Counted from the stretch's first letter, positions 785-38,751 are shown. The stretch: DNA of 64,000 nt from Candidatus Nealsonbacteria bacterium (GCA_047456315.1 CP179889.1:256776-320775); one strand, 5' to 3'. The notes: generated from the sequence alone by a model not told the origin. Program-made: numbers and translations.

Positions 785-1180
785 ATGAACACAAAAACAA
801 AGAGATCCATCAAATGGGTCATAGACAAAAAAAATCAATTCAAACACGCAGGCATTCATTTAATTGCTGATTTTTGGCATGGAAAAAGAATTGAAGACCC
901 AAAAGAGCTAAAAAAGATTTTGATTGGAGCAGTTAAAGCGGCAAACAATACTCCGTTAAAAATTAGCATTCATAAATTTTCACCCCAAGGTATAACTGGG
1001 GTTGTTTTATTAGCTGAAAGTCATATTTCAATTCATTCTTGGCCTGAATACAATTATGTGGCGATTGATGTTTTTACTTGTGGTGATAAATCTACTTCCA
1101 ACAAAGCATTAGATTATTTGAAAAAGAAGTTTCAACCCAAAAAGGTAAAGATAAAAAAAATAAAAAGGGGAGCAATTTAA
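785..1180 (+). CDS. speH: S-adenosylmethionine decarboxylase proenzyme (pyruvoyl, small bacterial/archaeal class)
   Basis: The track ORF 773..1180 starts at TTG; the first ATG in frame is at 785. It contains the self-processing motif LLAESHISIHSWPE and FTCG. Confidence 0.85.
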   Translation: MNTKTKRSIKWVIDKKNQFKHAGIHLIADFWHGKRIEDPKELKKILIGAVKAANNTPLKISIHKFSPQGITGVVLLAESHISIHSWPEYNYVAIDVFTCGDKSTSNKALDYLKKKFQPKKVKIKKIKRGAI

Positions 1181-14642: not shown

Positions 14643-15788
14643 ATGATGATAAAGAATTTAAAAAAAGCAGCTGATAGAATACTAAAAGCAGTAAAGAGTA
14701 AAGAAAATATCATTTTATACGGTGACAATGATTTAGATGGAGCAGCTTCAGTTATTATTTTAAAAGAAACAATTACAACCTTGGGCAGTAAAGTTTCAGC
14801 AGTTTATTTTCCAGACAGAGAGCATGAAGGTTATGGAATAACAGAGAAAGCTCTAACGAAATTAAAAGAATTTTCACCCGCACTTCTGGTGGCGCTGGAT
14901 TGTGGGATCGGTAATTTTAAAGAAATAAAATTGGCAAAAAAGCTTGGATTTGATGTAATAGTAATTGATCATCATAAGATTTTAGGCAAGTTGCCTGAAG
15001 CTGATATTGTTGTGGATCCGAAACAAAAAGAAGAAACATATCCTTTTAAAGATTTTGCCACTGTAGGAATTATCTTTAAACTTGCAGAGCTATTGTTAAA
15101 AAACAAACTGGGTGATAATTTAAAGAAAAGCTTTCTGGAATTAGTTGCCTTAGCCACCATTGCTGATATGATGCCCCAGGTTGATGAGAATAAAAAATTT
15201 ATTGACGAAGGGTTAAGAAATATAGGGGATTCCTGGAGGCCTGGAATTAAAGTTTTTTTTAAGGATAAATTCTTCAAACAATATGATTTCCGTCAGAAAA
15301 TTTCAAAAATAATCTCAATATTGAATGTGCGTGATGTTCAAAACGGGTTTCCAGTTTCCTTTAGAATTTTAATAGAACCATCCATAGAAGAAGTTAGAAG
15401 AATAATTCCAGAGCTTCAGATAAAAAATGAAGAAAGAAAATTAAAAATCAGAAGAGTTGTTGCAGTGATAAAGCTGAAAGTTTCAAAAAGCGATTTACCA
15501 ATTATTTTTGAAGGTGGTTCAGATTGGGACTATACAATAATTTCACCTGTTGCTTCTCAGCTGTGCAATTATTTTAAAAAGCCAACTTTTATCTTCAAAA
15601 AATTAGAACATGAAACCCAGGGCACAGTAAGATCAACTTTTGATGTTGACAGTGTGGCTTTAATGGAGAATTGTAAAGAGCATGTAATTACTTATGGAGG
15701 TCATGCTCAGGCATCTGGTTTCAGGGTTAAAAATGAGAATCTTGAGAAATTTAAAAATTGCTTAATAGAAAACACTTTAAAATTATGA
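14643..15788 (+). CDS. DHH/DHHA1 family phosphoesterase (short RecJ-like exonuclease or NrnA-like)
   Basis: DNDLDGAAS, VIVIDHH (DHH motif) and GGHAQASG (DHHA1 GGH motif). Confidence 0.75.
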   Translation: MMIKNLKKAADRILKAVKSKENIILYGDNDLDGAASVIILKETITTLGSKVSAVYFPDREHEGYGITEKALTKLKEFSPALLVALDCGIGNFKEIKLAKKLGFDVIVIDHHKILGKLPEADIVVDPKQKEETYPFKDFATVGIIFKLAELLLKNKLGDNLKKSFLELVALATIADMMPQVDENKKFIDEGLRNIGDSWRPGIKVFFKDKFFKQYDFRQKISKIISILNVRDVQNGFPVSFRILIEPSIEEVRRIIPELQIKNEERKLKIRRVVAVIKLKVSKSDLPIIFEGGSDWDYTIISPVASQLCNYFKKPTFIFKKLEHETQGTVRSTFDVDSVALMENCKEHVITYGGHAQASGFRVKNENLEKFKNCLIENTLKL

Positions 15789-16228
15789 AAAAAATCACAA
15801 TCTATACTGACGGCGCTTCAAGAGGTAATCCAGGCCCGTCGTCTCTGGGAGCTGTTTTTAAAAATGAAAAAGATCAGGTTTTCAAAGAATATTCCCAATT
15901 CTTAGGAAATAAGCTGACTAATAATGAAGCAGAGTATTCAGCAGTAATTTTTGCTCTTAAAAAATTCAAGCTTTTGTTTGGAAAGAAAATGGCAAAAGTA
16001 AGTGAAGTTGAGCTTAAATCTGATTCAGATCTATTAGTTAAACAATTAAATGGAAAATACAAGATTATAGATAAGAAAATTCAAGAATTATTTTTAGAGG
16101 TCTGGAATTTAAGACTTGATTTTAAAAAAGTAAAATTCACTCATATTGCCAGAAGCAGGAATAAAAGAGCTGATGCTCTGGCCAACCAATCTTTAGATGA
16201 GCGGGTTAAAATACAGAAGCTTCTTTAA
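15785..16228 (+). CDS. rnhA: ribonuclease HI-like protein
   Basis: The track ORF starts at 15758. MKKITIYTDGASRGNPGPSS begins at ATG 15785, which overlaps the upstream TGA (ATGA). It also has NNEAEY and RADALAN motifs. Confidence 0.8.
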   Translation: MKKITIYTDGASRGNPGPSSLGAVFKNEKDQVFKEYSQFLGNKLTNNEAEYSAVIFALKKFKLLFGKKMAKVSEVELKSDSDLLVKQLNGKYKIIDKKIQELFLEVWNLRLDFKKVKFTHIARSRNKRADALANQSLDERVKIQKLL

Positions 16229-16241
16229 ATGTAGCAGTAAA

Positions 16242-16277
16242 AAGCAAAAACCACGTATAACGACGCGGTTTTTGCTT
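16242..16277. terminator. bidirectional hairpin terminator between rnhA (+) and rnpB (-)
   Basis: Stem AAGCAAAAACC (16242-16252) / GGTTTTTGCTT (16267-16277). A/T runs lie on both sides. Confidence 0.6.
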
Positions 16278-16634
16278 ATCCTAACAAGCCCATAAGCCGA
16301 ATTCTGTTTTAAGCAATCATTTGTCTTGGCCCTGAATTACTTCAGAGCTCATGCGAACTACTTTTTTCCTTTAGCAAAAACCAAAGGATTTGTTCTTGCA
16401 CCTGGTAAGGATTTAACCGTTTCACCCCTATATTGCTATAGGACTAGCCCGTAAAACGGGCTGCTTGACCTTTCGGTCTTGCACGTCTCTGCTCGCACCT
16501 CTACTTCAGTTATATTTTCCGAAGCGACGGCTGTTAGCCGCTACCTTTTTAACCCCCAGTAAATGGAGAGTAAGTGTTCGGACTTTCCTCTCTTTATTTT
16601 TCAATAAAGAGCGATTACCCGACTTGTTAGGATA
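16278..16634 (-). ncRNA. rnpB: RNase P RNA, bacterial type A
   Basis: The minus strand contains GAGAGGAAAGTCCGAAC (P4 5' strand) and ACAGAATTCGGCTTAT (P4 3' strand). P1 pairs CCTAACAAG with CTTGTTAGG. Length is about 357 nt; the ends are approximate. Confidence 0.9.
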
Positions 16635-23568: not shown

Positions 23569-23639
23569 TGCGGGGTCGGCTAATGGTAGGCCCGACGCCT
23601 CTGAAGCGTCTAATCTTGGTTCGAATCCAAGCCCCGCAA
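23569..23639 (+). tRNA. tRNA-Gln (anticodon CTG)
   Basis: Has a U1-A72 pair like other bacterial tRNA-Gln. Acceptor stem TGCGGGG/CCCCGCA, anticodon arm GACGC-CTCTGAA-GCGTC, T arm CTTGG-TTCGAAT-CCAAG. Confidence 0.85.
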
Positions 23640-23694
23640 CAATATTAAGCACGGTTCGAGGAACCGAAACGCCTCGGGTTCGAATCCTACCGTC

Positions 23695-23756
23695 GGAGCA
23701 GGCTAGTGCTCGGTTCGAGTGACCGAGCAGCATTAAACTCGATTTATCGGGTTTTT
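23695..23756 (+). repeat. copy A of the GGAGCAGGCTAGTG-hairpin-ACCGAG module (candidate small RNA or att-type repeat) with terminator-like 3' end
   Basis: GGAGCAGGCTAGTG, then the hairpin CTCGG-TTCGAGTGA-CCGAG, then CTCGATTTATCGGGTTTTT. Confidence 0.6.
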
Positions 23757-23867
23757 AATTTGAGAAGAATTATTCAAAGAAGGTCTTTACCCTGACTTGA
23801 ATTTTACTGAAAATTAGTCTATTTTGAGAAAAAGGAATACTTTTTTGAAAAAGATAGCAAAATTTCT

Positions 23868-23890
23868 ATTCCGCTTTGCGGAATCTTTTT
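23868..23890 (+). terminator. intrinsic terminator-like hairpin in the island leader region
   Basis: ATTCCGC-TTT-GCGGAAT followed by CTTTTT. The core CCGCTTTGCGG recurs at 29144-29154. Confidence 0.45.
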
Positions 23891-23921
23891 ACATTAATAA
23901 GTCCATTTATATGCTAATTAT

Positions 23922-23956
23922 AGTATGTAGACCTAAAGTTAGCAAGTCGCTATACT
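23922..23956 (+). promoter_or_regulatory. candidate C-box operator upstream of the controller gene
   Basis: Inverted repeat AGTATgtaGAC (23922-23932) / GTCgctATACT (23946-23956), ending 10 nt before the C-protein start codon. Confidence 0.35.
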
Positions 23957-23965
23957 GAAAATGAT

Positions 23966-24181
23966 ATGAAAAAAGATGTCTTAGTTAAATTTGGTAAAAA
24001 AGTACGTAAGTATCGTACCAAGTTGGGTTTATCTCAAGAAGGGTTGGCTTCTAAGGCAGGAGTTCATCGTACCTACATTGGAATGATAGAAAGAGGAGAA
24101 AAAAATATAACATTAATGAATATTAAAAAAATTGCCAATGCTTTAAATCTGAAAATTAATCAATTATTAAGCAATTTTTAA
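23966..24181 (+). CDS. XRE-family HTH controller (C) protein of the R-M system
   Basis: 71 aa with LGLSQEGLASKAGVHRTYIGMIERGEKNITLMNIKKIA. It ends 3 nt before the endonuclease gene. Confidence 0.75.
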   Translation: MKKDVLVKFGKKVRKYRTKLGLSQEGLASKAGVHRTYIGMIERGEKNITLMNIKKIANALNLKINQLLSNF

Positions 24182-24184
24182 GTT

Positions 24185-24883
24185 ATGGATATTAAAAGTT
24201 TCGAAGAGAATATTATCAAAGAATTTGCTAAAGTAATCTTGAAGATAATAAAAAATTATCCAAAATTAAATATTTCTGCTAAAGCAAGGGCTGGTGCTGA
24301 GATTAGCGATTTTCTTGAAGAGAAATTTGTTGAATATAGTAGTAAAAATAAGCTATTTAAAGATTCCGAAGCATCGCCAAAAGGAGCGACGAAAAATCCT
24401 TGGGATGCTAAAACAAATTTTTGTTTCAAAAATCACGAGGAAATTATTTGGATTGATTTTAAGGTATTAAAAACATCGGGAAAAGATAGTAATCCAGATA
24501 TTGGATCTCCAAATAAAATAATAAAATTTATTAAAGAGGGAAATTTTTATTTATTATATGTTTATGTTTTTTACAAAGAAATTGAAAAAGGTTTGAAGTT
24601 TGTGAAAGTGAATGGGAGTTATACTAAATTATATTTTTTAAAAGATATCAACCGCACTTTTAGAAGGAATCCCAAAAATCAATTACAGGTTAATATGTCT
24701 GCACCTCCAGAGTATAGAACTAGAAAAAATTTTATTAAACTTTTAAGTCAGAAATTAAAAGAATCTCATGAGCGTCAGATAAAAATTTCTAAAAAAGTTC
24801 TCCAAAAATTGTCGGCTGAAGAAAAAGCTTTATTAAAAGTAAATAAAAAATCAGAAGCTAGGATTTTAAAAAATTTGCGATAG
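24185..24883 (+). CDS. putative type II restriction endonuclease
   Basis: 232 aa, located between the C protein and a convergent methyltransferase. It has a PD-(D/E)xK-like pattern (PWDAK ... IWIDFKVLK). There is no family-level match by eye. Confidence 0.5.
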   Translation: MDIKSFEENIIKEFAKVILKIIKNYPKLNISAKARAGAEISDFLEEKFVEYSSKNKLFKDSEASPKGATKNPWDAKTNFCFKNHEEIIWIDFKVLKTSGKDSNPDIGSPNKIIKFIKEGNFYLLYVYVFYKEIEKGLKFVKVNGSYTKLYFLKDINRTFRRNPKNQLQVNMSAPPEYRTRKNFIKLLSQKLKESHERQIKISKKVLQKLSAEEKALLKVNKKSEARILKNLR

Positions 24884-26576
24884 ATTTTTTTATATACTCT
24901 GTTTCTTCAAGCGAGAAATTATAAAAACGATATGTGGCTTGATTGATTTTATTCTCAAGCTCTTTTTTATTGCGATCACTATTATATATTTGACTTACAA
25001 GTTTACTTATTTTTTTTATAAATACAGCATCTTGTGGAACAGGAATAGAATATAAGTCGGAAATTTTTATCTGCGGTTGTTTTCCCTTTCTGTATCGTAT
25101 TATCTCCATTTTTTGAGCATAGAATGTTATTAATTCAGAATTAAAATAACCACATAAAAATTTAAGATACTCTCTTGTTTCTTCGTCATCCTTTCTTAAA
25201 GAAAACACATATAAACTATTGTTTGCAGCACTTAAGTTTTCATCGTAAGAGGTGATTATCTCTTTGGCAGATTGACGAATAAATATTTTAGGGTTGTTAT
25301 ATACTAAAAAATCACCCAAGCCTATCCTTTTTTTATTTTTAATACCTTTCTTTGTTAATTCTATTCTTAATTCATTATTTATTTTGTTTTGGAGCGTTTT
25401 ATCATAACGGAAAAACTTATTACTAGAAAGATTGCAGTATTTCTTATAAAGAGCTTTTGATCCTTGATAGTATTTGTAATAATTACACTTTTTATTTTCA
25501 ACAATTTCTGAATTTATAAATTTATCTTCCATATTAAGCAACATAGCACATGTTCTTAATGCTTTTTTAGGGTATTGATTTTTGAGAGTTTGTGGGGCTT
25601 TTTTAGTAATTTTTTTTAGAACATCGTTTGTAGTATCGGAAAAACTGAGTCTAAATTTATATTCGTCATTTTTATTATACCAATCTTTTTGGTTGATCCT
25701 GTGAGTTTCTTTACCAAAGAAATTTCTTACTATGACATTGTGATTGAAATTTTCGCTATTTTTTTGGAGTTTAATTATTAATTGACCGCTTGCGACTCCA
25801 TCAAAATTAGAGATATTATCTTCTATTGCAATAATTTTTGTTTTTTCTAATAAATATTTACGAGTATATTTATAAGCTGTTTCAAAGAAAGAAATATCAA
25901 TTATATAAGAGAGCTTTCCATCTTTTTTTAAAAAATCTAATCCATTTTCAAGAAAAAGCATAATATAATTAATTTTTCCGTTTTTAACAGCCTGAGGAAA
26001 TTGTTTATATTGACTAAGATAATTTATTCTTTGTTGCTCATTTTTTTTTCTATCTCTTCGTCCGTATAATGTTACGTATGGTGGATTTCCAACTATATAA
26101 TCAATATTTCCTAATAAATTTTCCAAGTTTTTATTTTTTATTTCGTCAAATAAAGAAAAATTATTTTTAACTTTTTCTGTGAAATCATAAACAAAACCAT
26201 TAAATTTACCTTGATATTTTTCATTAAACAAATTCTCATATAGAGCGCAAATATTTTTTTTTGTCGTGTCTATCATTACAGGATCAATATCTACAAAATA
26301 GAGACCATTTTCAATAAATTTTCTTATTTTTTCTTTTTCAGGACAGTGTTGATAAGCTCTTTCAATTATTCTTAATAAAAAAATACCATTTCCGCTAGCT
26401 GGTTCAAGAACTTTTTTACCAATAACGCTATTGTTAAATTCAATGGCATCTAAAATAGAATCAATAATTTTTAATTCATTAGTAAAAAAGATGCCATTAT
26501 CCTTTTTTTTCTGGTGTGTCAATTGAGCTTGGTTATTTATCTGATGTGTTATTGTTTCGGCTATTATTTGATTCAT
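24858..26576 (-). CDS. N6-adenine DNA methyltransferase (Eco57I/TaqI-like gamma class with C-terminal target-recognition domain)
   Basis: Motif I VLEPASGNGIF, motif IV VGNPPYV, and a C-terminal tail ending INQATYRFYNFSLEETEYIKK. The 3' end overlaps the REase 3' end by 26 nt. Confidence 0.85.
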   Translation of the reverse strand: MNQIIAETITHQINNQAQLTHQKKKDNGIFFTNELKIIDSILDAIEFNNSVIGKKVLEPASGNGIFLLRIIERAYQHCPEKEKIRKFIENGLYFVDIDPVMIDTTKKNICALYENLFNEKYQGKFNGFVYDFTEKVKNNFSLFDEIKNKNLENLLGNIDYIVGNPPYVTLYGRRDRKKNEQQRINYLSQYKQFPQAVKNGKINYIMLFLENGLDFLKKDGKLSYIIDISFFETAYKYTRKYLLEKTKIIAIEDNISNFDGVASGQLIIKLQKNSENFNHNVIVRNFFGKETHRINQKDWYNKNDEYKFRLSFSDTTNDVLKKITKKAPQTLKNQYPKKALRTCAMLLNMEDKFINSEIVENKKCNYYKYYQGSKALYKKYCNLSSNKFFRYDKTLQNKINNELRIELTKKGIKNKKRIGLGDFLVYNNPKIFIRQSAKEIITSYDENLSAANNSLYVFSLRKDDEETREYLKFLCGYFNSELITFYAQKMEIIRYRKGKQPQIKISDLYSIPVPQDAVFIKKISKLVSQIYNSDRNKKELENKINQATYRFYNFSLEETEYIKKSIANFLKS

Positions 26577-26634
26577 AATAAATTATTTTTTTGAACAGTA
26601 AATTTTTTATTTTGCATATATGATAATATTGCCG

Positions 26635-27258
26635 TTATTGAAATTTTGCAGTAATTACGCTCTTTACTTCTCCTTCAATTCTAAAATCATCTTTTGCTAA
26701 AAAAGGGGGATATTTTGAGTTTAAAGATATGAGGATATATCTTTTTTTATTTTTATCTTTCTCTACTCTGATTTTTTTAATTAAAACTTCTCCATCATTG
26801 ATGCAGACAACAATACTATTATTATCAGGGCTGTTATTCTTTTTCACAATTATAAAATCACCTCCATTTATTTTAGGAATCATGGAGTCTCCCTTAGCTT
26901 TTATCATAAATGCCTCCGAAGAAGGAAAAGTCAACAATTTAGTTGATATAGCTATTCGATCAATCGGATTTCCATCTAATATAGATCCACTTGGACCACA
27001 ATGAGCGAGACCATATAGGTTTAGATAGGTAATCTTTTTTTCTGGCGCATCTTTAAGTACTTGGTAGTCTCGAGGATTATAGGGATTTCTCTTTAGATAC
27101 CCCTTTTTTTCTAGTTGTTCTAAATGATGAGCAACTACACTGGGAGAAGATATATCCAAAATGTTTTGCATTGCTCTAATCGTTAGAGGATCATCGCTGT
27201 TTTTGATGAGAATGTTTAAAAGTTTTTTTTGAGTTGGGTGAAGATTTTTTCTTTTCAT
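26635..27258 (-). CDS. lexA: LexA-type repressor (winged-helix plus S24 peptidase)
   Basis: N-terminal LHPTQKKLLNILIK...SPSVVAHHLEQLEKKGYLKRN (LexA DNA-binding domain). C-terminal AKGDSMIPKINGGDFIIV and LIKKI supply the Ser/Lys dyad. Confidence 0.75.
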   Translation of the reverse strand: MKRKNLHPTQKKLLNILIKNSDDPLTIRAMQNILDISSPSVVAHHLEQLEKKGYLKRNPYNPRDYQVLKDAPEKKITYLNLYGLAHCGPSGSILDGNPIDRIAISTKLLTFPSSEAFMIKAKGDSMIPKINGGDFIIVKKNNSPDNNSIVVCINDGEVLIKKIRVEKDKNKKRYILISLNSKYPPFLAKDDFRIEGEVKSVITAKFQ

Positions 27259-27316
27259 GGTTTTCCACAGTTGACTATCTTTTATTATATTCTAATATAA
27301 GCAAGAGAGCGAGTCA

Positions 27317-27348
27317 AGAACAGATTGCTTTGTTCTACTTTTTGTTCT
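27317..27348. promoter_or_regulatory. candidate LexA operator in the lexA/HNH divergent region
   Basis: Palindrome AGAACA (27317-27322), 8 nt, TGTTCT (27331-27336), plus a third TGTTCT half-site at 27343-27348. Confidence 0.3.
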
Positions 27349-27415
27349 ATTATATTAATATGATAGCTACTGAGGAGGCCGACAGTGGCTGAAATAAATG
27401 ATTTTTTAAAAAAAT

Positions 27416-27649
27416 ATGTCAATTTCCAAAGAAAGAAAAGGAGAGCTTCGTAGGCGCGCAGGAGGAAGATGTGAATGTACTATGAGAGTGTGTGATCATC
27501 ATCGGGCTGGAGTTAGGTGTCCTAGATCCTTGGTTGCAGGATATTGGGAAGCTCATCGTAGAAATGCAAATGGCCCATATGTTCTAAGCAACCTTATAGC
27601 TATGTGCGCTACCTGCCACAAAAATACATATACATATGGCAGGTCATAG
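27416..27649 (+). CDS. stand-alone mini HNH endonuclease (77 aa)
   Basis: GGRCECTMRVCDHH...WEAHRRNANG...SNLIAMCATCHKN. The sequence is visibly more G+C-rich than its surroundings. Confidence 0.65.
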   Translation: MSISKERKGELRRRAGGRCECTMRVCDHHRAGVRCPRSLVAGYWEAHRRNANGPYVLSNLIAMCATCHKNTYTYGRS

Positions 27650-27660
27650 CATATTATTTA

Positions 27661-27699
27661 AACAGAAGCTTTGCATGTCAGAGCTTTTCTGTTTTTTTC
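27661..27699 (+). terminator. intrinsic terminator after the mini-HNH gene
   Basis: ACAGAAGCT pairs with AGC(TT)TTCTGT, followed by TTTTTT. Confidence 0.5.
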
Positions 27700-27862
27700 A
27701 AGATGTGGAACATGTTGCTGTCGTCGTAATCCTGTATATTGCAAAAGAGTTGTGTAGGAGTTATATTATAGGCAAGAATTGTAGAGGAAACGCTTAAAAA
27801 GTTCGATGTGTATTTGATTAATTGTTAAGAAGAGCTCGAGATTAGATAAATAATTTAAATAA

Positions 27863-29134
27863 ATGGAAAAAGAAATAATACAAACTACAGAGAAAAAGAA
27901 GGAAATTGTATCAAAGGAGCCTAAAAAAGAAAAAACCACTATTAATAAATTTTCTTCTTTCTTAAAGGAAGTCGTCGCTTTATTATTTTGGACTTATGTG
28001 TTACTAAAGCTTTTCGTATTTGATATTGATATTTGGTTGATTAATAAGTATCTGCCAAGATACGCTTGGTTGTTGAAGTTCAAGCTTCTTTTTTTAATTG
28101 TATTTATCGCGGTGATTTGGTTAGTTACAAGAAATAAACATATTTTGTCTTGGTCTTTTTATATACTATTTTACCCGGTAATATTTTTTCTTTGGAAAAT
28201 ACCTACTTTTGTTTTTAAACAAAAAAGTTGGATTTTTGCGTTTGCTTTTGTTAATGCAGTAATCTCATTCTTTAAATCAGTAAAACATAACTTTATTATG
28301 TTTACTTTATTTGTAGTGTCTTCCGTCACTATTTTTACTTCTTTGAATGAAAAATTATTATGGATCATGATATTAGCTTTGTTTCTTGTTATTTCAATTA
28401 TTTATATCCGTAGGTTTACTTTACTGTTCAAGCCTTCGAGTATATTCCAAATCTATAAAAAAATTTTTTCAGCAACGAAAAGTTATGGTGCAAAACAAAC
28501 AACTCTTTTTGCCCTAGATGACGATATAAAAAATTTGCCAATTGAAAGCCTTGATAAAAAACAACTTGAAAAACGGACTACAAACCTACAAACATCTGTT
28601 TTATTTAACCGTATTTGTTTTTTCGCGGCAAAAAAATTAAGGGACTATCAGGATAGCGGATTTAATGTGATGTCTTACATTCTGAATGTTTTATTATTGA
28701 TAATTTTGACTGTTTTTTCTTTTGCGGTTATAAACTTCGGACTTTTTAAAATAAGTGATGGATTTTTTAGCTATTCTGCAGTTCCAAAATTTTTTACTTT
28801 TTTCTATTATAGTTTTAACAATCTTCTATTTAACTCAATTAAAGAAATAGCTCCTATAATGCCAATATCACAAATCGTTCTTATGATAGAACAGTTTTTT
28901 GCCTTCATTCTCGTAGTAATTTTTATTTCTTTATTATTTTCTATAAGAAATCAAAAGCATACAGAAGAATTGAATGAGGCTATCAAAGGCATTGAGGCGC
29001 AAGGAGTAGAAATCGAAGGCTTTATCAAAGATGAATATAAAATAAATAGCATTGAGGATGCTATGGTGGAATTAAAAAAAATGAAAGCTGGGCTTATAAA
29101 ATTTATTTATAAAATAACAGAAAATATTAAATAG
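27863..29134 (+). CDS. polytopic membrane protein of unknown function with cytosolic C-terminal tail
   Basis: 423 aa with a charged N-terminus (KKKEIVSKEPKKEK), about 8 hydrophobic segments and a C-terminal soluble region of about 60 aa. Confidence 0.6.
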   Translation: MEKEIIQTTEKKKEIVSKEPKKEKTTINKFSSFLKEVVALLFWTYVLLKLFVFDIDIWLINKYLPRYAWLLKFKLLFLIVFIAVIWLVTRNKHILSWSFYILFYPVIFFLWKIPTFVFKQKSWIFAFAFVNAVISFFKSVKHNFIMFTLFVVSSVTIFTSLNEKLLWIMILALFLVISIIYIRRFTLLFKPSSIFQIYKKIFSATKSYGAKQTTLFALDDDIKNLPIESLDKKQLEKRTTNLQTSVLFNRICFFAAKKLRDYQDSGFNVMSYILNVLLLIILTVFSFAVINFGLFKISDGFFSYSAVPKFFTFFYYSFNNLLFNSIKEIAPIMPISQIVLMIEQFFAFILVVIFISLLFSIRNQKHTEELNEAIKGIEAQGVEIEGFIKDEYKINSIEDAMVELKKMKAGLIKFIYKITENIK

Positions 29135-29139
29135 GTTGC

Positions 29140-29160
29140 GTGCCCCGCTTTGCGGGGCAT
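29140..29160 (+). terminator. GC-rich hairpin immediately after the membrane protein gene
   Basis: GTGCCCCGC-TTT-GCGGGGCAT forms a 9-bp stem. It opens a locally GC-rich spacer of about 110 nt. Confidence 0.45.
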
Positions 29161-29302
29161 GAAATTTTGCGGTAACGAAAAAGCGAGAGCGGGCAAAAAC
29201 TCCTTCCCCCACACCCCCTTCTTTTTTATCCGCCCGAGCGTAATTTTTAAAATTCTGCATTAGGATTTTGTTGGAAAAAAGTTCGGATTTCGTCCAACGT
29301 TC

Positions 29303-29388
29303 GGAGCAGGCTAGTGAGACCTTTCGGATGACCGAGAGGATTATCATTTATCGCACGAGACTTGTTATCTCGGGTTTTATTTTTTAAC
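29303..29388 (+). repeat. copy B of the GGAGCAGGCTAGTG-hairpin-ACCGAG module with terminator-like 3' end
   Basis: TCGGAGCAGGCTAGTG is identical over 16 nt to copy A. It is followed by the hairpin TTCGG-ATGA-CCGAG and then CGAGA-CTTGTTA-TCTCG GGTTTTATTTTTT. Confidence 0.6.
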
Positions 29389-29453
29389 GATGGATTCAAG
29401 CTTTTGTGAAATATTTGGTAGAATAAAAGCAAGGATGAAAACGAAAATTATTT

Positions 29454-29888
29454 ATGAAATATGAAATTATAGATCCAAAAGTTCAAAAGACATATTATTA
29501 TGCAAAAAAGATATTGGATTCACAAGGATTTACCCAACATCTTGAAATTTATCTTGCTTTGGGTCGAAAAAATCAGCCCCAGACAGGATTGCTAGGGCCA
29601 TTACGGATAGTAGGCGCTATTATGTTTATTGCTGGGATAGTTTTACTGTTCAAAAATATTCTTTTAGGAATAACGGTTATTGTAACCGCCCTAATTCTTC
29701 AAAGTTTTTTTGTTAAGAAGTATCATTCGCATAGAAATTTATCTGCCATAAAGGAATCATCTCAACGGGCAGGAAGCCATAAACTTATGAGAATTGTTGC
29801 TGAGGAAATGTCTAAGGGATCATCAGTAGAACAGATTGTGCTGGCAATGAAAAAAGAGATTCAAGAGACTCTAAAAGGAACTTTCTAA
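29454..29888 (+). CDS. hypothetical membrane protein (144 aa)
   Basis: Central hydrophobic stretch LLGPLRIVGAIMFIAGIVLLFKNILLGITVIVTALIL. No recognisable catalytic motif. Confidence 0.55.
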   Translation: MKYEIIDPKVQKTYYYAKKILDSQGFTQHLEIYLALGRKNQPQTGLLGPLRIVGAIMFIAGIVLLFKNILLGITVIVTALILQSFFVKKYHSHRNLSAIKESSQRAGSHKLMRIVAEEMSKGSSVEQIVLAMKKEIQETLKGTF

Positions 29889-29910
29889 AGTAAAATGTCA
29901 AAAGAACCAG

Positions 29911-29942
29911 AAAATAAATAAATCTATGAAAGAAAAAATTAA
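29911..29942 (+). repeat. left copy of a direct repeat bracketing the GIY-YIG-like gene (includes its start codon)
   Basis: ATCTATGAAAGAAAAAATTAA (29922-29942) is identical over 21 nt to 30496-30516. The upstream AAAATAAATA matches AAAGTAAATA. Confidence 0.7.
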
Positions 29943-30477
29943 AATACCAAAAGAAATTATTAGTTTATACACAAAAGTATTTCCTTTGAGAAGTATAAGA
30001 AAAACTCTTCAGCCTACACCCGCTGTTTATTGCTTTTGGTGGATAGGCAATAAGGAGTTTTTTTCTAAAAACGCTGAAAGAAGAATAAGTTTAAAAGGCC
30101 CAAAGGGAAGATTTTTTGAGCTGGAGCATAAAATGTGGTTCCCGAAAGAACTACCTTACATACCTCTATATGTGGGCAAAACAACAAAACTTAAAGATAG
30201 AATCTTAAAGCATTTACTTATAAGTTATTCTAAAAGAGTTCACCCAAAACCCAAAAACTACAAAAAAGTTAAGCCTCATAATACGGTGTGTCAATTAAGG
30301 GCTGGCATAGAACATATATTCCCTAATGAAAAAGAACCAAAAAGTCTTATTCTTGAGAATATAGGTTTATCTTTTTTGGACATATTTGGAAAAGAGGCAG
30401 TAAGCGAAAGATTTTATTTAGAAGATTTTGCTATTGGCTATTTCAGACCTTGGTTTAACTTGGATTGTGAACGTTAA
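29926..30477 (+). CDS. GIY-YIG-like nuclease superfamily protein
   Basis: AVYCFWWIG (GIY-like), IPLYVGKTTKLKDRILKH (YIG-like plus helix), a conserved Arg in QLRAGIEH, and an acidic ERFYLEDFAI near the C-terminus. Assigned by motif spacing only. Confidence 0.5.
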   Translation: MKEKIKIPKEIISLYTKVFPLRSIRKTLQPTPAVYCFWWIGNKEFFSKNAERRISLKGPKGRFFELEHKMWFPKELPYIPLYVGKTTKLKDRILKHLLISYSKRVHPKPKNYKKVKPHNTVCQLRAGIEHIFPNEKEPKSLILENIGLSFLDIFGKEAVSERFYLEDFAIGYFRPWFNLDCER

Positions 30478-30480
30478 AAT

Positions 30481-30516
30481 AAAGTAAATAGTTCTATCTA
30501 TGAAAGAAAAAATTAA
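30481..30516 (+). repeat. right copy of the direct repeat bracketing the GIY-YIG-like gene
   Basis: It starts 4 nt after the gene's stop codon. It re-creates a start codon plus MKEKIK and then runs into a 16-codon dead-end ORF (MKEKIKRNKADPIFLL*). Confidence 0.7.
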
Positions 30517-30554
30517 GAGAAATAAAGCTGACCCTATTTTTCTACTATAAATCT

Positions 30555-30914
30555 ATGATTAGTACGTGGGAAAGAAAATTTAATAAAAAACGCCCGAAAG
30601 GAATGCCGAAATGGAAATGGCACGAACGACTTAAAAAAGAAGAAATTCTTGAAAAAGAATTATCTTGTCAGGAAAAAGAGCAGTTTTCAGAATTGAATAA
30701 ATTTTTAAACGAAGAAAAAAAGAAAAAATTACGGAAAGCTCCTATTGCTTTTTTGGGAAATTCATTTATCACATTTTTCATTCTTGCCCCTATAACGGTT
30801 TTAATTTTTGTCCTTATTGCGGCATTTATACCCAGACCCTTAATTATAATTTTTTGTCTGATTGCTTTAGCTTCTGCGGTTTGGGCAATTCATCATAGAC
30901 GTCCATCTCCTTAA
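30555..30914 (+). CDS. hypothetical small membrane protein (119 aa)
   Basis: Charged N-terminal half (KWKWHERLKKEEILEKE) and two C-terminal TM segments. Confidence 0.5.
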   Translation: MISTWERKFNKKRPKGMPKWKWHERLKKEEILEKELSCQEKEQFSELNKFLNEEKKKKLRKAPIAFLGNSFITFFILAPITVLIFVLIAAFIPRPLIIIFCLIALASAVWAIHHRRPSP

Positions 30915-31009
30915 GTTTCTTCTAAACATTTTCCTTGAAAGAAAAATTAATTGCCTAGACAGGAATGGGGCATTGAAAGAAGTGGGGAAGTTTTAAGTAA
31001 AATTTAATT

Positions 31010-31795
31010 ATGAAATACAAAAAATCAATCGGTGAGCTTATAGATGAGTACGAATCTAATAGTTCTTACAAACTTCATAATTTTCTTTTAATATCAAAAC
31101 ATATACAGTATGTTTTTGAAGATAATTTCAAAGAATTTTTAAACCATATAAACAAATACGAAAAAGAAACTGTCTCTAGGAGGAAAAAATTTAAAGAGAA
31201 AAAACTTACTAGAATTAAAAACCGTAATTACTTAAAAAAGTTTATAAAATATTTTCATAATTACGTAGCTGCAGTTTATTCAGCAGAGGAATATTATAAC
31301 AAATTTCTTCCAATGAAGAGAAGTGTGTGGGAAAAATTTAAAACTATAAAGCAAGAACCTCTGCATCTATTTATTTTTGCATTAAGAACTAATATTACTC
31401 ATTATACTATTCCTCCAATCTCTATATCAGTTATCCACAAAAAGAGAATGACGAACCAGGGGGAGGTTTTGTTCTTAACTAAAGGGCAGTTTAGAGTAAG
31501 CAAGACAGCCATTTTATCTGATCACCAGAATGCTCAACCTACTCGTAGAAGAGGCCAAAGCAATTCTAAATTTCTAAGCGATGATTCTAAAAGAAATATT
31601 CTTTATAGGTATATATTAGAAGAATATAGAGGCACTTTATCTATAGATTTAAAAAGAGTTATCAAGAATCATCGGATATTGTTTTTGAAATATATATGTA
31701 AAGCCGATAGCGAACTTGTTGAAAGTGATAAGATTCAATATAGCGAAATAAAGAAGTTATATCAGGAAATAATAAAGAGACAAAGTCTCCTATGA
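31010..31795 (+). CDS. hypothetical protein with possible HEPN-like Rx4H motif
   Basis: 261 aa and predicted helical. It contains FIFALRTNITHY (R-x4-H). There is no other recognisable domain. Confidence 0.5.
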   Translation: MKYKKSIGELIDEYESNSSYKLHNFLLISKHIQYVFEDNFKEFLNHINKYEKETVSRRKKFKEKKLTRIKNRNYLKKFIKYFHNYVAAVYSAEEYYNKFLPMKRSVWEKFKTIKQEPLHLFIFALRTNITHYTIPPISISVIHKKRMTNQGEVLFLTKGQFRVSKTAILSDHQNAQPTRRRGQSNSKFLSDDSKRNILYRYILEEYRGTLSIDLKRVIKNHRILFLKYICKADSELVESDKIQYSEIKKLYQEIIKRQSLL

Positions 31796-31922
31796 TTGCC
31801 ATGAAATTTACTACCTGCGAAAAAAAATCGACCAATTAGTTTATAAACCCTACGGTCTCACGTCGGAGGAGATAAAAATGGTTGAAAATCAAAAAAAAAG
31901 AAGATTTACTGAAATTATATAA
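31776..31922 (+). pseudogene. orphan C-terminal fragment of an R-M methyltransferase/specificity-type gene
   Basis: The open frame translates ...HEIYYLRKKIDQLVYKPYGLTSEEIKMVENQKKRRFTEII*. The IDxLVYxxYGLTxEEIxxVE tail is the hallmark C-terminus of Eco57I/TaqI-like and type I M/S proteins. No upstream body or start codon is present. Confidence 0.6.
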
Positions 31923-31948
31923 ATAAACTTAGTTTTGCAACATATCTT

Positions 31949-32899
31949 ATGGATGGCAGAGAAGAATTAAAAACATTTAATTGTTTTCGTGATAAATACC
32001 AATTTTTATCTTCTGGATATTTAGTGTTCTCTTTTACTTTACCTATTTGTTTGCATCTAGAGAATAGCTTTGATTTTTTAGTTAATCTTCGAGATTGGTC
32101 TCATCCTTTTATAATAAATACCGAAGAGTACATTGAAGAATATGACCCAAGATATGGAAATAGTAAAAACATAGAGGTTAATAGTGATATTGCCTCAGCT
32201 TATAGATTTACAAGGTTGAATGTTATTTTTTTGGATAAAGATCCGAAAATACCACTTGAAAAGATTATAGAATTATATGAAAATGATGTTTTAAAAGCCG
32301 TAAACCATTTTTTAAATGCTTATAGATATATAACCGAGCGCCACACAATTAACAATATATTTAGTTTATCGTTCGTGAGGAGTTTAAAAATATATCGAGG
32401 AGATAAAGAAGGAAAAGAACAGTTTCAAATTGTTATTCAGTTTGGTGTAGATGGTTTATTAGGCCCTTTTCTTCCATTTCGTTCCTCCGAAGAGCATAGT
32501 AAATTAAAAGAGCTTGCCTTAAAAGATCAACCACTTCCATTAGACGAATTACTTTTAATGGATGCAAAAAGATATTCAGCTATAGGGTACGAATTACAAT
32601 CTCTTATTACGGCCGTGACTGCTCTGGAGACAAGTATTGGCAACAGAAAGGCAAAGAGAAGTATAAGAAGAATGCAGCATTTCTTAGATTTCTTTTTCAA
32701 AAATCGAGGATTCCAGAATAAAGTAAAAAGTTTGCTTAACGAAAATTTAAATACTCCTAAGGGTCTGGTAGGAGAAGTTATTTTTGCAATTAGAGAAAGG
32801 AATAGGATTGTCCACGACGGAAAAAAATTCGTTAAAGGGGATGTAAAAAAACACTTAGAATCAATAAGATTAGCAATAAAATACATCAAGGATATATAG
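31949..32899 (+). CDS. hypothetical protein with C-terminal HEPN-like domain
   Basis: 316 aa. The C-terminal region contains AIRERNRIVHDGKKF (RNxxxH, i.e. Rx4H), preceded by helical segments. Confidence 0.55.
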   Translation: MDGREELKTFNCFRDKYQFLSSGYLVFSFTLPICLHLENSFDFLVNLRDWSHPFIINTEEYIEEYDPRYGNSKNIEVNSDIASAYRFTRLNVIFLDKDPKIPLEKIIELYENDVLKAVNHFLNAYRYITERHTINNIFSLSFVRSLKIYRGDKEGKEQFQIVIQFGVDGLLGPFLPFRSSEEHSKLKELALKDQPLPLDELLLMDAKRYSAIGYELQSLITAVTALETSIGNRKAKRSIRRMQHFLDFFFKNRGFQNKVKSLLNENLNTPKGLVGEVIFAIRERNRIVHDGKKFVKGDVKKHLESIRLAIKYIKDI

Positions 32900-32903
32900 T
32901 AAA

Positions 32904-32951
32904 ATGAGACACTAAAAACACCCTTAAGTAGCGTCTCATTTGTCTCATTTT
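32904..32951 (+). terminator. hairpin terminator with duplicated 3' arm
   Basis: ATGAGAC (32904-32910) can pair with GTCTCAT at 32933-32939 or with the tandem copy at 32942-32948. TTT follows. Confidence 0.4.
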
Positions 32952-32960
32952 AGCTTAAGA

Positions 32961-33080
32961 TAGCCCCGACCGAGAGGCATTGTGGAACAGCATAGAAAAC
33001 CCCCCTTGATTTCCCCTTAAAATCCAGGTTCTAGACCGACTAGGGGAGCAGGATAGTGCTCGGTTCGAGCGACTGAGACC
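32961..33080 (+). repeat. copy C (long form) of the repeat module; lacks a terminator
   Basis: About 120 nt aligns with 33514-33640. The core is GGGGAGCAGGATAGTGCTCGGTTCGAGCGACTGAGACC, whose hairpin arm matches copy A. Confidence 0.65.
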
Positions 33081-33101
33081 TATATAAAATAATTAATAAC
33101 C

Positions 33102-33509
33102 TTGATGAAAAAAATACTCATTAATCTCATAAATTTCTTACAAATTTATTCTGGGGCCATAAGTATAATTTTTTTAATTAGCGGTATTTTATGGGCACTT
33201 TTTAAATTTAGAATCTATATAAAAGACAGGCGATTTGGTATATACCATAAATTAATTCAAGAACTGGTTGAACCAGAAAGCCCAAATAAACCATTAAAGT
33301 TAGACCGGCAGATAGCAATTATTTTTGAATTAAGAAATTTTCCAGAATATTACGAAGTATCTAGAAGAATTTTAAGTGGGCTTAAAGAAAATTGGAAAGA
33401 CGTAAGTGTTGAAAGGGTAATTGAAGAAATTGATATTTCGTTAAAATATATGGAAAGCAATAAAATTTGTCGTTTTTGCCATAATTTATTAAATTTTATT
33501 AAATATTAA
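33102..33509 (+). CDS. hypothetical N-terminally anchored protein (135 aa)
   Basis: TTG start in the track (MMKKIL...). One TM segment (IYSGAISIIFLISGILWALF). It is flanked on both sides by long-form repeat copies C and D. Confidence 0.5.
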   Translation: MMKKILINLINFLQIYSGAISIIFLISGILWALFKFRIYIKDRRFGIYHKLIQELVEPESPNKPLKLDRQIAIIFELRNFPEYYEVSRRILSGLKENWKDVSVERVIEEIDISLKYMESNKICRFCHNLLNFIKY

Positions 33510-33513
33510 AAAA

Positions 33514-33663
33514 TAGCCCGGACCGAGAAGCATTGTTGGACAGCCTCAAAAAACCCTTAATTTTTCTTTAAAGCCTAGGTTCTAGACCGACTAAGGGAGC
33601 AGGCTAAGTGAGACGTTTGGGAGACCGAGGCACATCAAAAATCGCCAAGAAGGCGGTTTTTTG
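33514..33663 (+). repeat. copy D (long form) of the repeat module with strong intrinsic terminator
   Basis: The core is AGGGAGCAGGCTAAGTGAGACGTTTGGGAGACCGAGGC, whose hairpin arm resembles copy B. It is followed by AAAATCGCC-AAGAA-GGCGGTTTTTT. Confidence 0.65.
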
Positions 33664-38660: not shown

Positions 38661-38751
38661 AAGCAATCATTAACTTCTTTCCAAACAGGTTCTAATGTCG
38701 TTCGTTTTTGGAACCAAAACAAAATTATTTTTTCTCTGAATAAAATTAAAT

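Follow-up and report, generated by a model that had tools for sequence, protein, structure and literature searches.

Copies of a tRNA 3′-end and trailer module in a variable genome segment of a Candidatus Nealsonbacteria bacterium

Why does a short conserved module with a hairpin recur on one strand behind a tRNA-Gln gene, as a transcribed RNA structure or as the trace of inserted DNA? Both possibilities had been raised by an initial annotation of the DNA studied here, a 64-kb stretch of a Candidatus Nealsonbacteria genome (the window), which we compared with loci from other genomes (designated by L-numbers).

The variable segment and its module copies

Relatives with 75–87% identity diverge from the window exactly at the 3′ end of tRNA-Gln and rejoin it at ~44.2 kb; eight relatives part from it immediately after GCAA-CA, and the rejoining is seen in four. 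The window's flanks (13.2–23.64 kb and 44.2–54.3 kb) lie only 0.4–3.1 kb apart in L068, L070, L072, and L073, and the variable segment measured by blastn synteny is 20.5 kb (Table 1), not the 10 kb originally assigned to the island. The boundary tRNA-Gln gene is intact, and it is from there on that relatives vary; the order prfB-ftsE-ftsX-tRNA-Gln is kept in L008, L002, and L031, while the downstream genes differ. GC content is 26–28% in the cargo of cassette 1 versus 33–35% in the flanks. Taken over the window and the comparison islands, the cargo is of accessory type and includes restriction-modification genes, a zeta toxin, methyltransferases, a QueC-like protein, and an IS481-type transposase. 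Over 130 nt, the start of the gene for the 183-aa protein in cassette 2 has 98.5% identity to DNA located just after tRNA-Asn and the module in L009; one distant homologue carries PF01541, the GIY-YIG domain.

Table 1. Features of the variable segment in the window.
Feature	Position	Strand	Description
tRNA-Gln(CTG)	23569–23640	+	Anchor of variable segment; ARAGORN; Rfam tRNA 58.5 bits
Variable segment	23641–~44160	.	Absent from or replaced in relatives (blastn synteny)
Degenerate Gln-type trailer copy	23641–23674	+	CAATATTAAGCA + hairpin CGGTTCGAGGAACCG
Copy A, left part	23677–23698	+	tRNA-Asn-like 3′ fragment, T-loop to discriminator, GGTTCGAATCCTACCGTCGGAG
Copy A, module	23695–23760	+	Core GGAGCAGGCTAGTG 23695–23708; hairpin CTCGGT/ACCGAG 23709–23727; terminator 23735–23760
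Cassette 1 cargo	23728–29279	+	HTH controller, SwaI-like restriction enzyme, Eco57I-type methylase (− strand), LexA-like S24 protein (− strand); further ORFs: weak HNH-like 77-aa ORF, 423-aa membrane protein (Pfam)
Copy B	29280–29385	+	Mimic AGTTCGGATTTCGTCC-AACGTTC 29280–29302; core 29303–29316; hairpin 29320–29339; terminator 29356–29385
Cassette 2 cargo	29386–32899	+	Five function-unassigned ORFs, including 183-aa protein 29926–30477
Copy C	32904–33077	+	Left element; core GGAGCAGGATAGTG 33045–33058; hairpin CTCGGT/ACTGAG 33059–33077; no terminator
Cassette 3 cargo	33102–33509	+	Single 135-aa ORF between C and D; no Pfam family
Copy D	33510–33663	+	Left element 33510–33595; core GGAGCAGGCTAAGTG 33596–33610; hairpin 33616–33629; terminator 33641–33662
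Degenerate mimic-only site	38683–38712	+	CAGGTTCTAATGTCGTTC-GTTTTTG-GAACC

The four module copies, A to D, are all intergenic and on the plus strand, with coordinates as first described. Several other elements of that description were confirmed, including the 16 identical nt common to A and B (TCGGAGCAGGCTAGTG), the two hairpin subtypes (CTCGGT-N7-AC(C/T)GAG in A and C; CCTTTCGG-ATGA-CCGAGAGG in B and TTTGG-GAGA-CCGAG in D), and the stem plus T-run, an intrinsic terminator, that follows A (23735–23754), B (29356–29372), and D (ATCGCC-AAGAA-GGCGGT, as read by eye) and is missing from C. The motif GGAGCAGG occurs eight times in the window (0.92 expected); four occurrences are copies A to D and the other four are unrelated coding matches (Gly-Ala-Gly). 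A covariance model search of the 64 kb returned five sites and no others, all inside the variable segment: copies A (68.2 bits), B (50.1 bits), C (64.5 bits), and D (51.4 bits) and a degenerate copy directly after tRNA-Gln (23612–23674; 20.8 bits). This degenerate copy, consisting of the tRNA-Gln 3′ end and its own trailer, is 69% similar to copy A (repeat family D2), and its trailer part is homologous to the trailer directly 3′ of tRNA-Gln in L073. A sixth, partial site (left part only) follows a bPH_2 gene within the variable segment.

Copies C and D share ~90 nt of homology upstream of the core (repeat families D9 and D14). In C, the left element is long and conserved (hairpin ATGAGAC/GTCTCAT at 32904–32939, then GCCCCGACCGAGAGG ... 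GGTTCTAGACCGACTAGG) and has homologues in L004, L052, L015, and L065; that of D is a shorter version. Copy B has an 8-bp hairpin and, as its left part, a mimic of a tRNA 3′ half, in a variant that is also present in the Saccharibacteria contig L015. The terminator-promoter block of D is common to many other loci.

Module identity

Judged by comparison with complete tRNA genes, the module is the last bases of a tRNA-Asn/Gln gene together with its conserved downstream trailer. Complete tRNA-Asn genes in L009, L011, L025, L036, L037, and L043 and complete tRNA-Gln genes in L008 and L039 have the module's GGAG as their 3′ end, and the tRNA-Asn/Gln trailer in related Patescibacteria genomes reads CAGGCTAGTG, hairpin, ACCGAG, terminator. 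In the window, a tRNA 3′ fragment, or else a degenerate mimic of such a fragment, lies to the left of each copy. The left part of copy A is identical to tRNA-Asn 3′ ends (e.g., that of L011) at 21 of 22 nt (manual count); ARAGORN called no tRNA at this copy, which lacks a 5′ half and is a pseudo-tRNA in the form of a 3′ fragment, while B, C, and D are diverged mimics. Assignment to simple tRNA 3′ fragments, named in the initial annotation as a result that would speak against it, applies to half of the module: the part up to GGAG is such a fragment or a mimic, and the remainder is conserved tRNA trailer.

Across loci, a site has three parts. The first is either a true tRNA-Asn/Gln 3′ fragment (T-loop and acceptor strand) or the mimic GGTTCTAAC.TCGTCC followed by 7 variable nt; the second is a 5-nt core, GGAGC, made of the last four tRNA bases and the first trailer base; the third is the trailer, AGGCTAGTG with a hairpin ending in ACCGAG and usually a terminator, which directly follows intact tRNA-Asn/Gln genes in many Patescibacteria. 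At 21 mimic sites without a module, conservation ends at GGAGC. Sites with both mimic and module show an imperfect dyad around the 7-nt spacer (6.85 of 12 positions, versus 2–3 in other registers), and this spacer is hypervariable between near-invariant flanks in 45–76 copies from different lineages.

Cassette boundaries and competing explanations

Comparison loci place cassette ends at or near this site. In L072 and L068, tRNA-Gln is followed by a terminator-promoter, a small ORF (~65 aa, manual count), and a mimic ending in GCAAC or TCAAC, after which comes a Gln-type trailer, the same as that directly 3′ of the tRNA in L073. The last five bases of the mimic track the local tRNA 3′ end (CGAGC in L031, GGAGC elsewhere). 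Three relatives (L072, L068, and L031) and L002 repeat the 3′ portion of the resident tRNA in direct orientation; in L002, the repeat spans ~200 nt, from the T-loop of tRNA-Gln through its 3′ end and the trailer, and flanks a 4-kb island on both sides. L020 and L047 have in common a 1-kb cassette (92% identity) that stands in a different context in each; it runs from GGAGC to the N7 of the following mimic. Wherever a checked locus contained several copies (e.g., L002, L010, L014, L015, and L047), these shared one strand. Breakpoints between loci do not all fall at one nucleotide; some lie 3′ of the hairpin (+33 to +45) or within the terminator-promoter block.

The second possibility raised at the outset, att-type sites left by serial insertion beside a tRNA, was supported by the match of GGAG to tRNA ends, by the divergence of relatives at the tRNA-Gln end, and by cassette blocks that start and stop at the site. 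We assign a probability of roughly 0.55 to the reading that the modules are att-type junction sites, left where cassettes mobilised in trans were inserted one after another at tRNA 3′ ends; they would be a familiar type of island scar, here without a visible integrase. Each module would represent one joint in a series of gene cassettes that were acquired horizontally and lined up behind a tRNA gene. A circular cassette would carry mimic-N7-GGAGC-trailer as its attachment site and recombine within GGAGC with a tRNA 3′ end or a resident site; insertion would give the tRNA a new trailer and terminator and push the older trailer to the far side of the cassette, and repeated rounds may have produced the array A-B-C-D, with a predicted enzyme acting in trans. 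Because the fragments and mimics A to D are of tRNA-Asn/Gln type ending in GGAGC whereas the resident tRNA-Gln ends in GCAAC, the array was not built by simple insertion into this gene; it probably arose at a GGAGC-type tRNA and then joined the present locus after the first trailer hairpin.

As initially stated, no integrase, transposase, cas, or reverse transcriptase domain was found in the island ORFs (Pfam); the same was true of 29 further window ORFs of at least 140 aa outside the island, and no tyrosine or serine recombinase was found among the tested window ORFs of at least 140 aa. A recombinase was also missing from ten island ORFs tested in L002, L013, L015, and L031 and from a crude motif scan of loci up to L076, and no phage or plasmid was found to carry the site.

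The 7-nt spacer differs between sites, an observation that counts against junction sites of this kind; to our knowledge, a classical tyrosine recombinase does not tolerate a spacer difference between partners. The G-U pairs and the strict orientation hint that the transcribed strand has a role as well.

A more specific proposal, possible but in our view doubtful, is that Patescibacteria harbour an integron-like system, in which small cassettes equipped with a promoter and terminator and lacking an integrase would use the tRNA-3′-half mimic (GGTTCTAAC.TCGTCC-N7-GGAGC, forming a dyad with AGGCTAG) as attachment site, dock at tRNA-Asn/Gln 3′ ends or resident sites, and be moved in trans by a single predicted recombinase or nuclease encoded elsewhere in the tiny genome, the trailer doubling as the new 3′ processing and termination signal of the tRNA.

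The module might instead be a functional RNA 3′-end element, co-transcribed with the tRNA or mRNA before it and serving as a trailer or in processing; it could, for example, be cleaved at the tRNA-like ...GGAG end, protect the transcript through its hairpin, or act as a terminator insulator. Its presence at cassette joints would then reflect nothing more than the need of each transcription unit for such an element. Of 41 copies, 36 share the strand of the gene upstream and 36 that of the gene downstream; the module trails promoter-driven tRNA-Asn genes and is usually followed by a terminator. The G-U pairs of its hairpin become A-C mismatches on the other strand, and the invariant CCGAG is matched by two different 5′ arms, each in its own register. 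In C and D, the left element can also form a 6-bp acceptor-like stem (CCCTTA/TAGGGG), in which a G-to-A change in copy D turns a U-G pair into U-A. However, the co-varying stems of the structured RNA family first proposed found no support among homologues: in 76 copies no hairpin pair changed on both sides, the 3′ arm was invariant, and scores equalled those of shuffled controls, while the closing helix, present in A and D, is unconserved in homologues (44.5% of cells paired, versus 44.3% in shuffles). Folding gave weak z-scores (−0.1 to −2.0), with similar values for the opposite strand, and Rfam 15 (gathering and E ≤ 10 thresholds) identified only tRNA and RNase P in the window and nothing next to the modules in 19 loci. 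Furthermore, most genes lack the module, whose only five sites in 64 kb are all in the variable segment, most mimics are without a 5′ acceptor partner, and conserved unpaired GGAGCAGGCTAGTG plus ACCGAG with a variable 7-nt gap resembles protein-binding DNA more, making an RNA element rather unlikely.

We consider it unlikely that dedicated machinery is absent altogether, i.e., that modules, mimics, and terminator-promoter blocks are dispersed 30–100-nt repeats that offer portable homology for RecA-dependent cassette exchange after DNA uptake, their similarity being kept by gene conversion. The scattered breakpoints also fit general homologous recombination between repeats, being spread over the conserved block (−18, 0, +33 to +45, and near +90), and a small ORF that distinguishes L047 from L014 is bracketed by two terminator-promoter blocks, not modules; within a single genome, the tRNA-Asn and tRNA-Gln trailers match at 91% over 128 nt (L025, L039), and the ORFs tested contained no recombinase. 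Against this, the mimic is short and too diverged from real tRNA ends to provide useful homology, yet it is conserved across distant lineages; conservation has a sharp edge at GGAGC, a pentamer that tracks the local tRNA, and the dyad appears in one register only. It is very unlikely that the modules are inert relics, i.e., decaying pseudo-tRNA fragments of ancient integrations or duplications without present function, as copy C (no terminator, ACTGAG), the degenerate copy after tRNA-Gln, the mimic-only site, and the lack of an enzyme nearby might suggest, since decay should be uniform rather than confined to the 7-nt gap, and small streamlined genomes retain up to five copies in 5 kb (L015).

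Comparison with known mobile systems

Like REP/REPIN sequences, for which the enzyme (RAYT transposase) is encoded once, elsewhere in the genome, the junction sites described here are extragenic and orientation-biased and place a short conserved motif and then a hairpin at gene 3′ ends. Unlike REP/REPIN sequences, the module is tRNA-derived; no Y1 HUH gene was found in the window ORFs tested, and a Y1_Tnp gene was seen only once (L008:4194-4868), between 29-nt inverted repeats of its own (AGGTGGAAAAAGGTGTCAGGAACCTTTTT) that are unrelated to the module. In the cis-mobilisable elements and ICE accretion of the Streptococcus ICESt3 family, att-flanked units lack recombination genes; the array shares with these the tandem att-flanked units at one site, presumably mobilised in trans, but its units are far smaller, and we know of no parent ICE or integrase for its site family.

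Integrons consist of intI and an attI platform, with attC sites built from R″-L″/L′-R′ boxes with a GTTRRRY core and cassettes that carry no recombinase. The window resembles them in its co-oriented arrays of one- or few-gene units, in a conserved, partly palindromic end site, in the lack of a recombinase on the units, and in a short and precise crossover core. It differs in having neither an intI gene (no Phage_integrase-type domain in the window ORFs tested by Pfam) nor an attI platform; inspection of the alignment revealed no R″/L″-L′/R′ architecture and no GTTRRRY/RYYYAAC pair, the core here being GGAGC(AGGCTAGTG), each cassette brings a terminator and a promoter of its own, and the primary target is the 3′ end of a tRNA.

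Prochlorococcus tycheposons carry tyrosine recombinases, and some are PICI-like (bioRxiv 10.1101/2020.12.28.424599); nothing comparable was found here, and the site family, including conserved trailer and hairpin, is common to Patescibacteria lineages. The two cases have in common a streamlined genome, partial tRNAs scattered through the island, and repeated integration at the same tRNA that drives older elements further into the island (bioRxiv 10.1101/2020.12.28.424599).

Islander-type tRNA-targeted islands have displaced tRNA 3′ fragments (PMC4383910). Unlike them, the window has no integrase in the island or the 64 kb (ORFs tested), its units are very small (0.55–5.6 kb, some single-gene), its fragments mismatch the resident tRNA, many sites are diverged mimics with a 5-nt T-loop insertion instead of true fragments, and the conserved block reaches ~35 nt into the shared trailer. 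These islands agree with the window in an intact tRNA at one end, accessory cargo, variation between relatives that begins at the tRNA, and partial tRNA 3′ copies in direct orientation at the element ends, which in the window are not those of the resident tRNA.

Module copies and their association with tRNA genes

The 8-mer GGAGCAGG occurs eight times in the whole window (0.92 expected); four of these occurrences lie within coding sequence and otherwise have nothing in common, and the other four are the module copies A–D, in which a core with GGAGC is followed by a hairpin ending in ACCGAG and usually by a terminator. The placement of all four copies on the plus strand between genes, as given in the initial annotation, was confirmed, as were the 16 identical bases shared by A and B, the two hairpin subtypes (CTCGGT-N7-AC(C/T)GAG in A and C; (C)YTTYGG-tetraloop-CCGAG in B and D), and terminator-like sites 3′ of A, B, and D (the last read from sequence). 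Both strands of the 64 kb were searched with a covariance model based on 45 homologous copies, which recovered A–D, one degenerate copy consisting of the tRNA-Gln 3′ end and its own trailer, and no others. In addition, C and D are homologous to each other over ~90 nt 5′ of the core. A sixth, partial site, carrying a degenerate mimic (i.e., a diverged tRNA-3′-half sequence), suggests a further joint within the 20.5-kb variable segment.

Positions of sites and elements (window coordinates unless a locus, L, from another genome or metagenome is named; minus strand shown as (-))
Feature	Position	Remarks
tRNA-Gln(CTG)	23569..23640 (+)	variable segment starts right after
Degenerate module copy	23612-23674	
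Copy A	23695	left part of type 1
Copy B	29303	left part of type 2
Copy C	33045	left part of type 3
Copy D	33596	left part of type 3
Partial sixth site	38683-38712	CAGGTTCTAATGTCGTTC-GTTTTTG-GAACC, 3′ of bPH_2 gene
Variable segment	23641 to ~44160	
Probable joint of the array	23674/23675	
Left element of C/D	32904-33044; L004:146-268(-); L052:5172-5296; L015:2088-2250(-); L065:3907-4070(-)	
~110-nt element	L002:5100-5230(-), 1050-1140(-); L013:6254-6350(-)	
Terminator and extended -10 block AAAAATCGCCAAGAAGGCGGTTTTTTGGTAGAAT	33637-33670	
Gene-start motif AATAAATCTATGAAAGAA...	29917-29944; 30491-30518; 33725-33752	
Gene with start shared with L009	29926-30477	
RVT_3 match	15758-16228	
RNase P RNA	16277-16630 (-)	bacterial class A, 117.6 bits
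TrwB/TraG-like coupling ATPase	11881-13497	with treble-clef zinc finger
LAGLIDADG_3 protein	57599-58621	
Cut tRNA-Gln and following DNA	L070:7990-9000	21 nt of tRNA kept
Y1_Tnp gene	L008:4135-4883	224 aa, IS200-like, RAYT-like; with flanking inverted repeats
LOOT RNA	L030:6785-6904 (-)	RF03000, 94.8 bits

Scanning a single genome from each species for the pattern yielded 65 stretches, about half of which were chance matches in coding DNA of unrelated phyla; the remaining 33 loci belong to Patescibacteria MAGs (Nealsonbacteria, Saccharibacteria, and unclassified) or to contigs that are probably mis-binned. In eight loci, the module GGAG represents the acceptor 3′ strand and discriminator of a complete tRNA gene, either tRNA-Asn(GTT) (L009, L011, L025, L036, L037, and L043) or tRNA-Gln (L008 and L039), and the trailer of these eight genes is composed of CAGGCTAGTG, the hairpin, ACCGAG, and a terminator. 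At the other sites, four types of left part were distinguished: (i) a tRNA 3′ fragment starting at the T-loop, as in copy A, where 21 of 22 nt equal tRNA-Asn ends by our own count; (ii) a mimic whose T-loop carries a 5-nt insertion (GGTTCTAAC.TCGTCC), as in copy B; (iii) a longer conserved element ending in GGTTCTAGACCGACTAGG, as in C and D, with homologues in L004, L052, L015, and L065; and (iv) a structured element of ~110 nt in Nealsonbacteria. In all four types, a hypervariable 7-nt gap (N7) separates TCC from the invariant GGAGC. Sites with both mimic and module contain an imperfect dyad, CTAaCaTcgTCC-N7-GGAgcAgGcTAG (also written CTAACATCGTCC-N7-GGAGCAGGCTAG), with a mean complementarity of 6.85 of 12 positions, as compared to 2–3 in other registers, and at 21 mimic sites lacking the module, conservation ends at GGAGC and a terminator follows. 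ARAGORN made no pseudo-tRNA or tmRNA call at the modules, and copies were confined to one strand in every multi-copy locus checked in the hit table. The feature is real and widespread in Patescibacteria, and its sites are best interpreted as junction repeats of the att type that stem from tRNA 3′ ends and trailers rather than as a new family of structured RNAs; the literature searched held no description of this site family.

The variable segment and the joints of putative mobile units

The window flanks at 13.2–23.64 kb and 44.2–54.3 kb are merely 0.4–3.1 kb apart in four loci (L068, L070, L072, and L073), which delimits the variable segment. In all eight relatives, defined as metagenome loci encoding FtsX at 80–92% identity, the sequence departs from that of the window immediately 3′ of the tRNA-Gln end GCAA-CA, and the relatives also differ among themselves from this point on; the more distant L008, L002, and L031 keep prfB-ftsE-ftsX-tRNA-Gln and differ in the downstream genes. 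The GC content of the first cassette is lower (26–28%) than that of the flanks (33–35%). Cargo genes in the first 10 kb encode a LexA-like protein, products of unknown function, and a restriction-modification system together with its controller; the stretch 3′ of D, with genes for a DUF4153 protein, YceG/MltG, a sigma factor, an OMP-decarboxylase-family protein, and an ABC transporter, possibly belongs to core DNA that has been rearranged. Three window genes share a repeated start-region motif (82–89% identical over 28 nt). Outside the variable segment, all ORFs of at least 140 aa are on the plus strand, an RNase P RNA is found on the minus strand, and a coupling ATPase and a LAGLIDADG_3 protein are each encoded amid core metabolic genes.

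Exact-protein look-ups for FtsX, the 183-aa product of the island gene 29926-30477, and P0001 returned no record; a search for homologues showed 100% identity between the 183-aa product and a protein of a Candidatus Nealsonbacteria genome. Modules are absent from the loci with homologues of the 183-aa protein (L077–L085), and this gene is therefore not tied to the site. These homologues are usually encoded directly 3′ of a 201–211-aa gene of unknown function; because this two-gene pair has a DnaA-like ATPase among its neighbours, as well as a GmrSD-type nuclease in L085, it may represent a defence module.

Several loci provide evidence that the sites are joints. In L072 and L068, tRNA-Gln is followed by a terminator-promoter block, an ORF of ~65 aa (our own count), and a mimic ending in GCAAC or TCAAC; the Gln-type trailer and terminator, which directly follow the tRNA in L073, come after this mimic. 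A unit was evidently inserted at the tRNA 3′ end, as judged from this gene order, with displacement of the old trailer. L031 presents the same arrangement with a mimic ending in CGAGC, which is also the end of its own tRNA-Gln, indicating that the mimic pentamer tracks the local target. A ~200-nt repeat (tRNA-Gln from T-loop to 3′ end, plus trailer) is present on both sides of a 4-kb island in L002 that encodes a QueC-like and an ASCH protein. A 1-kb unit that is 92% identical between two MAGs (L020 and L047) has different neighbours in each, starting at GGAGC and ending at the N7 of the next mimic, and the DNA just 3′ of tRNA-Asn and module in L009 is 98.5% identical over 130 nt to the start of a window gene located between B and C.

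The terminator and extended -10 block AAAAATCGCCAAGAAGGCGGTTTTTTGGTAGAAT is near-identical in the window and many loci (L010, L014, L043, L052, L055, and L060), and L047 has a small ORF between two copies; start codons are often just 4–15 nt 3′ of the -10, suggesting that the downstream genes produce leaderless mRNAs. In L070, a tRNA-Gln is cut after the D-loop and followed by ~0.9 kb with a LAGLIDADG-like ORF and then by a different, complete tRNA-Gln(CTG), which looks like replacement of a tRNA by an incoming element.

Secondary structure and possible RNA roles

The initial annotation had also proposed a structured RNA family, which we set aside as the main reading in favour of att-type junction repeats. 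Rfam searches of the window, 19 loci, and L002 at gathering and E ≤ 10 thresholds found no relevant family, and the supposed co-variation of the hairpin did not hold, as no pair was changed on both sides in 76 copies, the 3′ arm is invariant, and all covariation measures equalled those of shuffled controls. The hairpin switches between two registers, in each of which the invariant CCGAG is paired, G-U pairs included, and this weakly points to a fold of the plus strand, either as RNA or as single-stranded DNA. The proposed closing helix was recovered in A and D; across the homologues, it is paired in 44.5% of cells, as compared to 44.3% in shuffles and 42–44% when slid by one column; the compensatory change between C and D that had been cited in its support is therefore no evidence. 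Folding energies were unremarkable (z-scores of -0.1 to -2.0 on the plus and +0.03 to -2.25 on the minus strand), and the DNA model still leaves room for a function at the RNA level, as trailer of a tRNA or as terminator. The copies are biased in orientation relative to genes (36 of 41), although these genomes are strongly co-directional in any case. Two further candidates were rejected: a small ORF, for which GGAG, 7 nt, and GTG resemble a start signal (peptides of 5–29 aa, unconserved, with the frame broken by 8-nt loops), and a trans-acting small RNA seed, given that matches to the complement CACTAGCCTGC are not enriched in the window.

A hairpin (ATGAGAC...GTCTCAT) followed by TGTCTCATTTT opens the left element of C and D, a conserved unit 125–190 nt long; this element may form a 6-bp acceptor-like stem, which we regard as a lead. 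Its versions in L004 and L052 lack the hairpin module and carry a terminator of their own; the element could be a small RNA in its own right whose 3′ stem is tRNA-like (CCCTTA/TAGGGG). The ~110-nt element, located between the tRNA-Gln terminator and the module, contains several hairpins whose sequences differ by copy yet stay paired (GCCCAAAGGGC vs CCCCGCCTTGGCGGGG); Rfam gave no match for it. A LOOT RNA was found 4 kb from a tRNA-Gln and module site in L030.

Search for an enzyme and proposed mechanism

In agreement with the initial annotation, Pfam searches of the window ORFs tested identified no integrase, resolvase, DDE/HUH transposase, Cas protein, or reverse transcriptase; one product with an RVT_3 match, which also fits the RNase H family, is accordingly read as an RNase H-type protein. 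Mobile-element genes were seen in only three other loci: an IS481-type transposase gene beside the module in L002, just beyond the distal repeat of the 4-kb island; a transposase remnant in L070 (read from sequence); and a Y1_Tnp gene between the tRNA-Gln module and a C/D-type copy in L008. This last gene has 29-nt inverted repeats of its own on either side, each with the palindrome AAAAAGGTGTCAGGAACCTTTTT and unrelated to the module, and a REP/RAYT link was rejected for this reason. The L008 HUH gene was the sole match in a recombinase motif scan, which is weak evidence because the patterns were strict. Two scans of IMG/VR for a phage attP gave one chance coding match and no mimic match, and no match to the site turned up when phage and plasmid collections were searched by BLAST; a mobilising activity is thus inferred.

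Under the model of att-type units, each unit would carry mimic-N7-GGAGC-trailer as a putative attachment site and would recombine, within GGAGC or beside it, with either a resident site or the 3′ end of a tRNA-Asn/Gln gene, and serial events would stack the units. Such stacking has been described in tRNA-seeded islands (PMC4383910) and in tycheposons (bioRxiv 10.1101/2020.12.28.424599). However, the spacer varies between sites, no recombinase was identified in the window ORFs tested, and breakpoints at some loci lie 3′ of the hairpin or inside the terminator-promoter block, which fits homologous exchange between repeats. The window array is also of the GGAGC type, whereas the resident tRNA-Gln ends in GCAAC; given this mismatch, the array probably originated at another location and became attached here behind the first trailer hairpin.

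In Nealsonbacteria, Saccharibacteria, and other Patescibacteria MAGs, the site family marks the joints of variable segments. Patescibacteria (candidate phyla radiation) have very small genomes, and to our knowledge, there is little understanding of how they acquire and reshuffle accessory genes, such as those for restriction systems, toxins, and surface proteins. The sites can be used as sequence tags to map flexible gene pools in metagenomes and to delimit single-gene mobile units, and phylogenetic profiling against them offers a starting point in the search for the missing enzyme. How units without a recombinase gene move is the interesting part: if they do so without an integrase of their own, a major uncultured radiation would possess a cassette system that bears comparison with integrons; otherwise, they would be an ordinary example of island growth seeded by a tRNA, though a cleanly resolved one.
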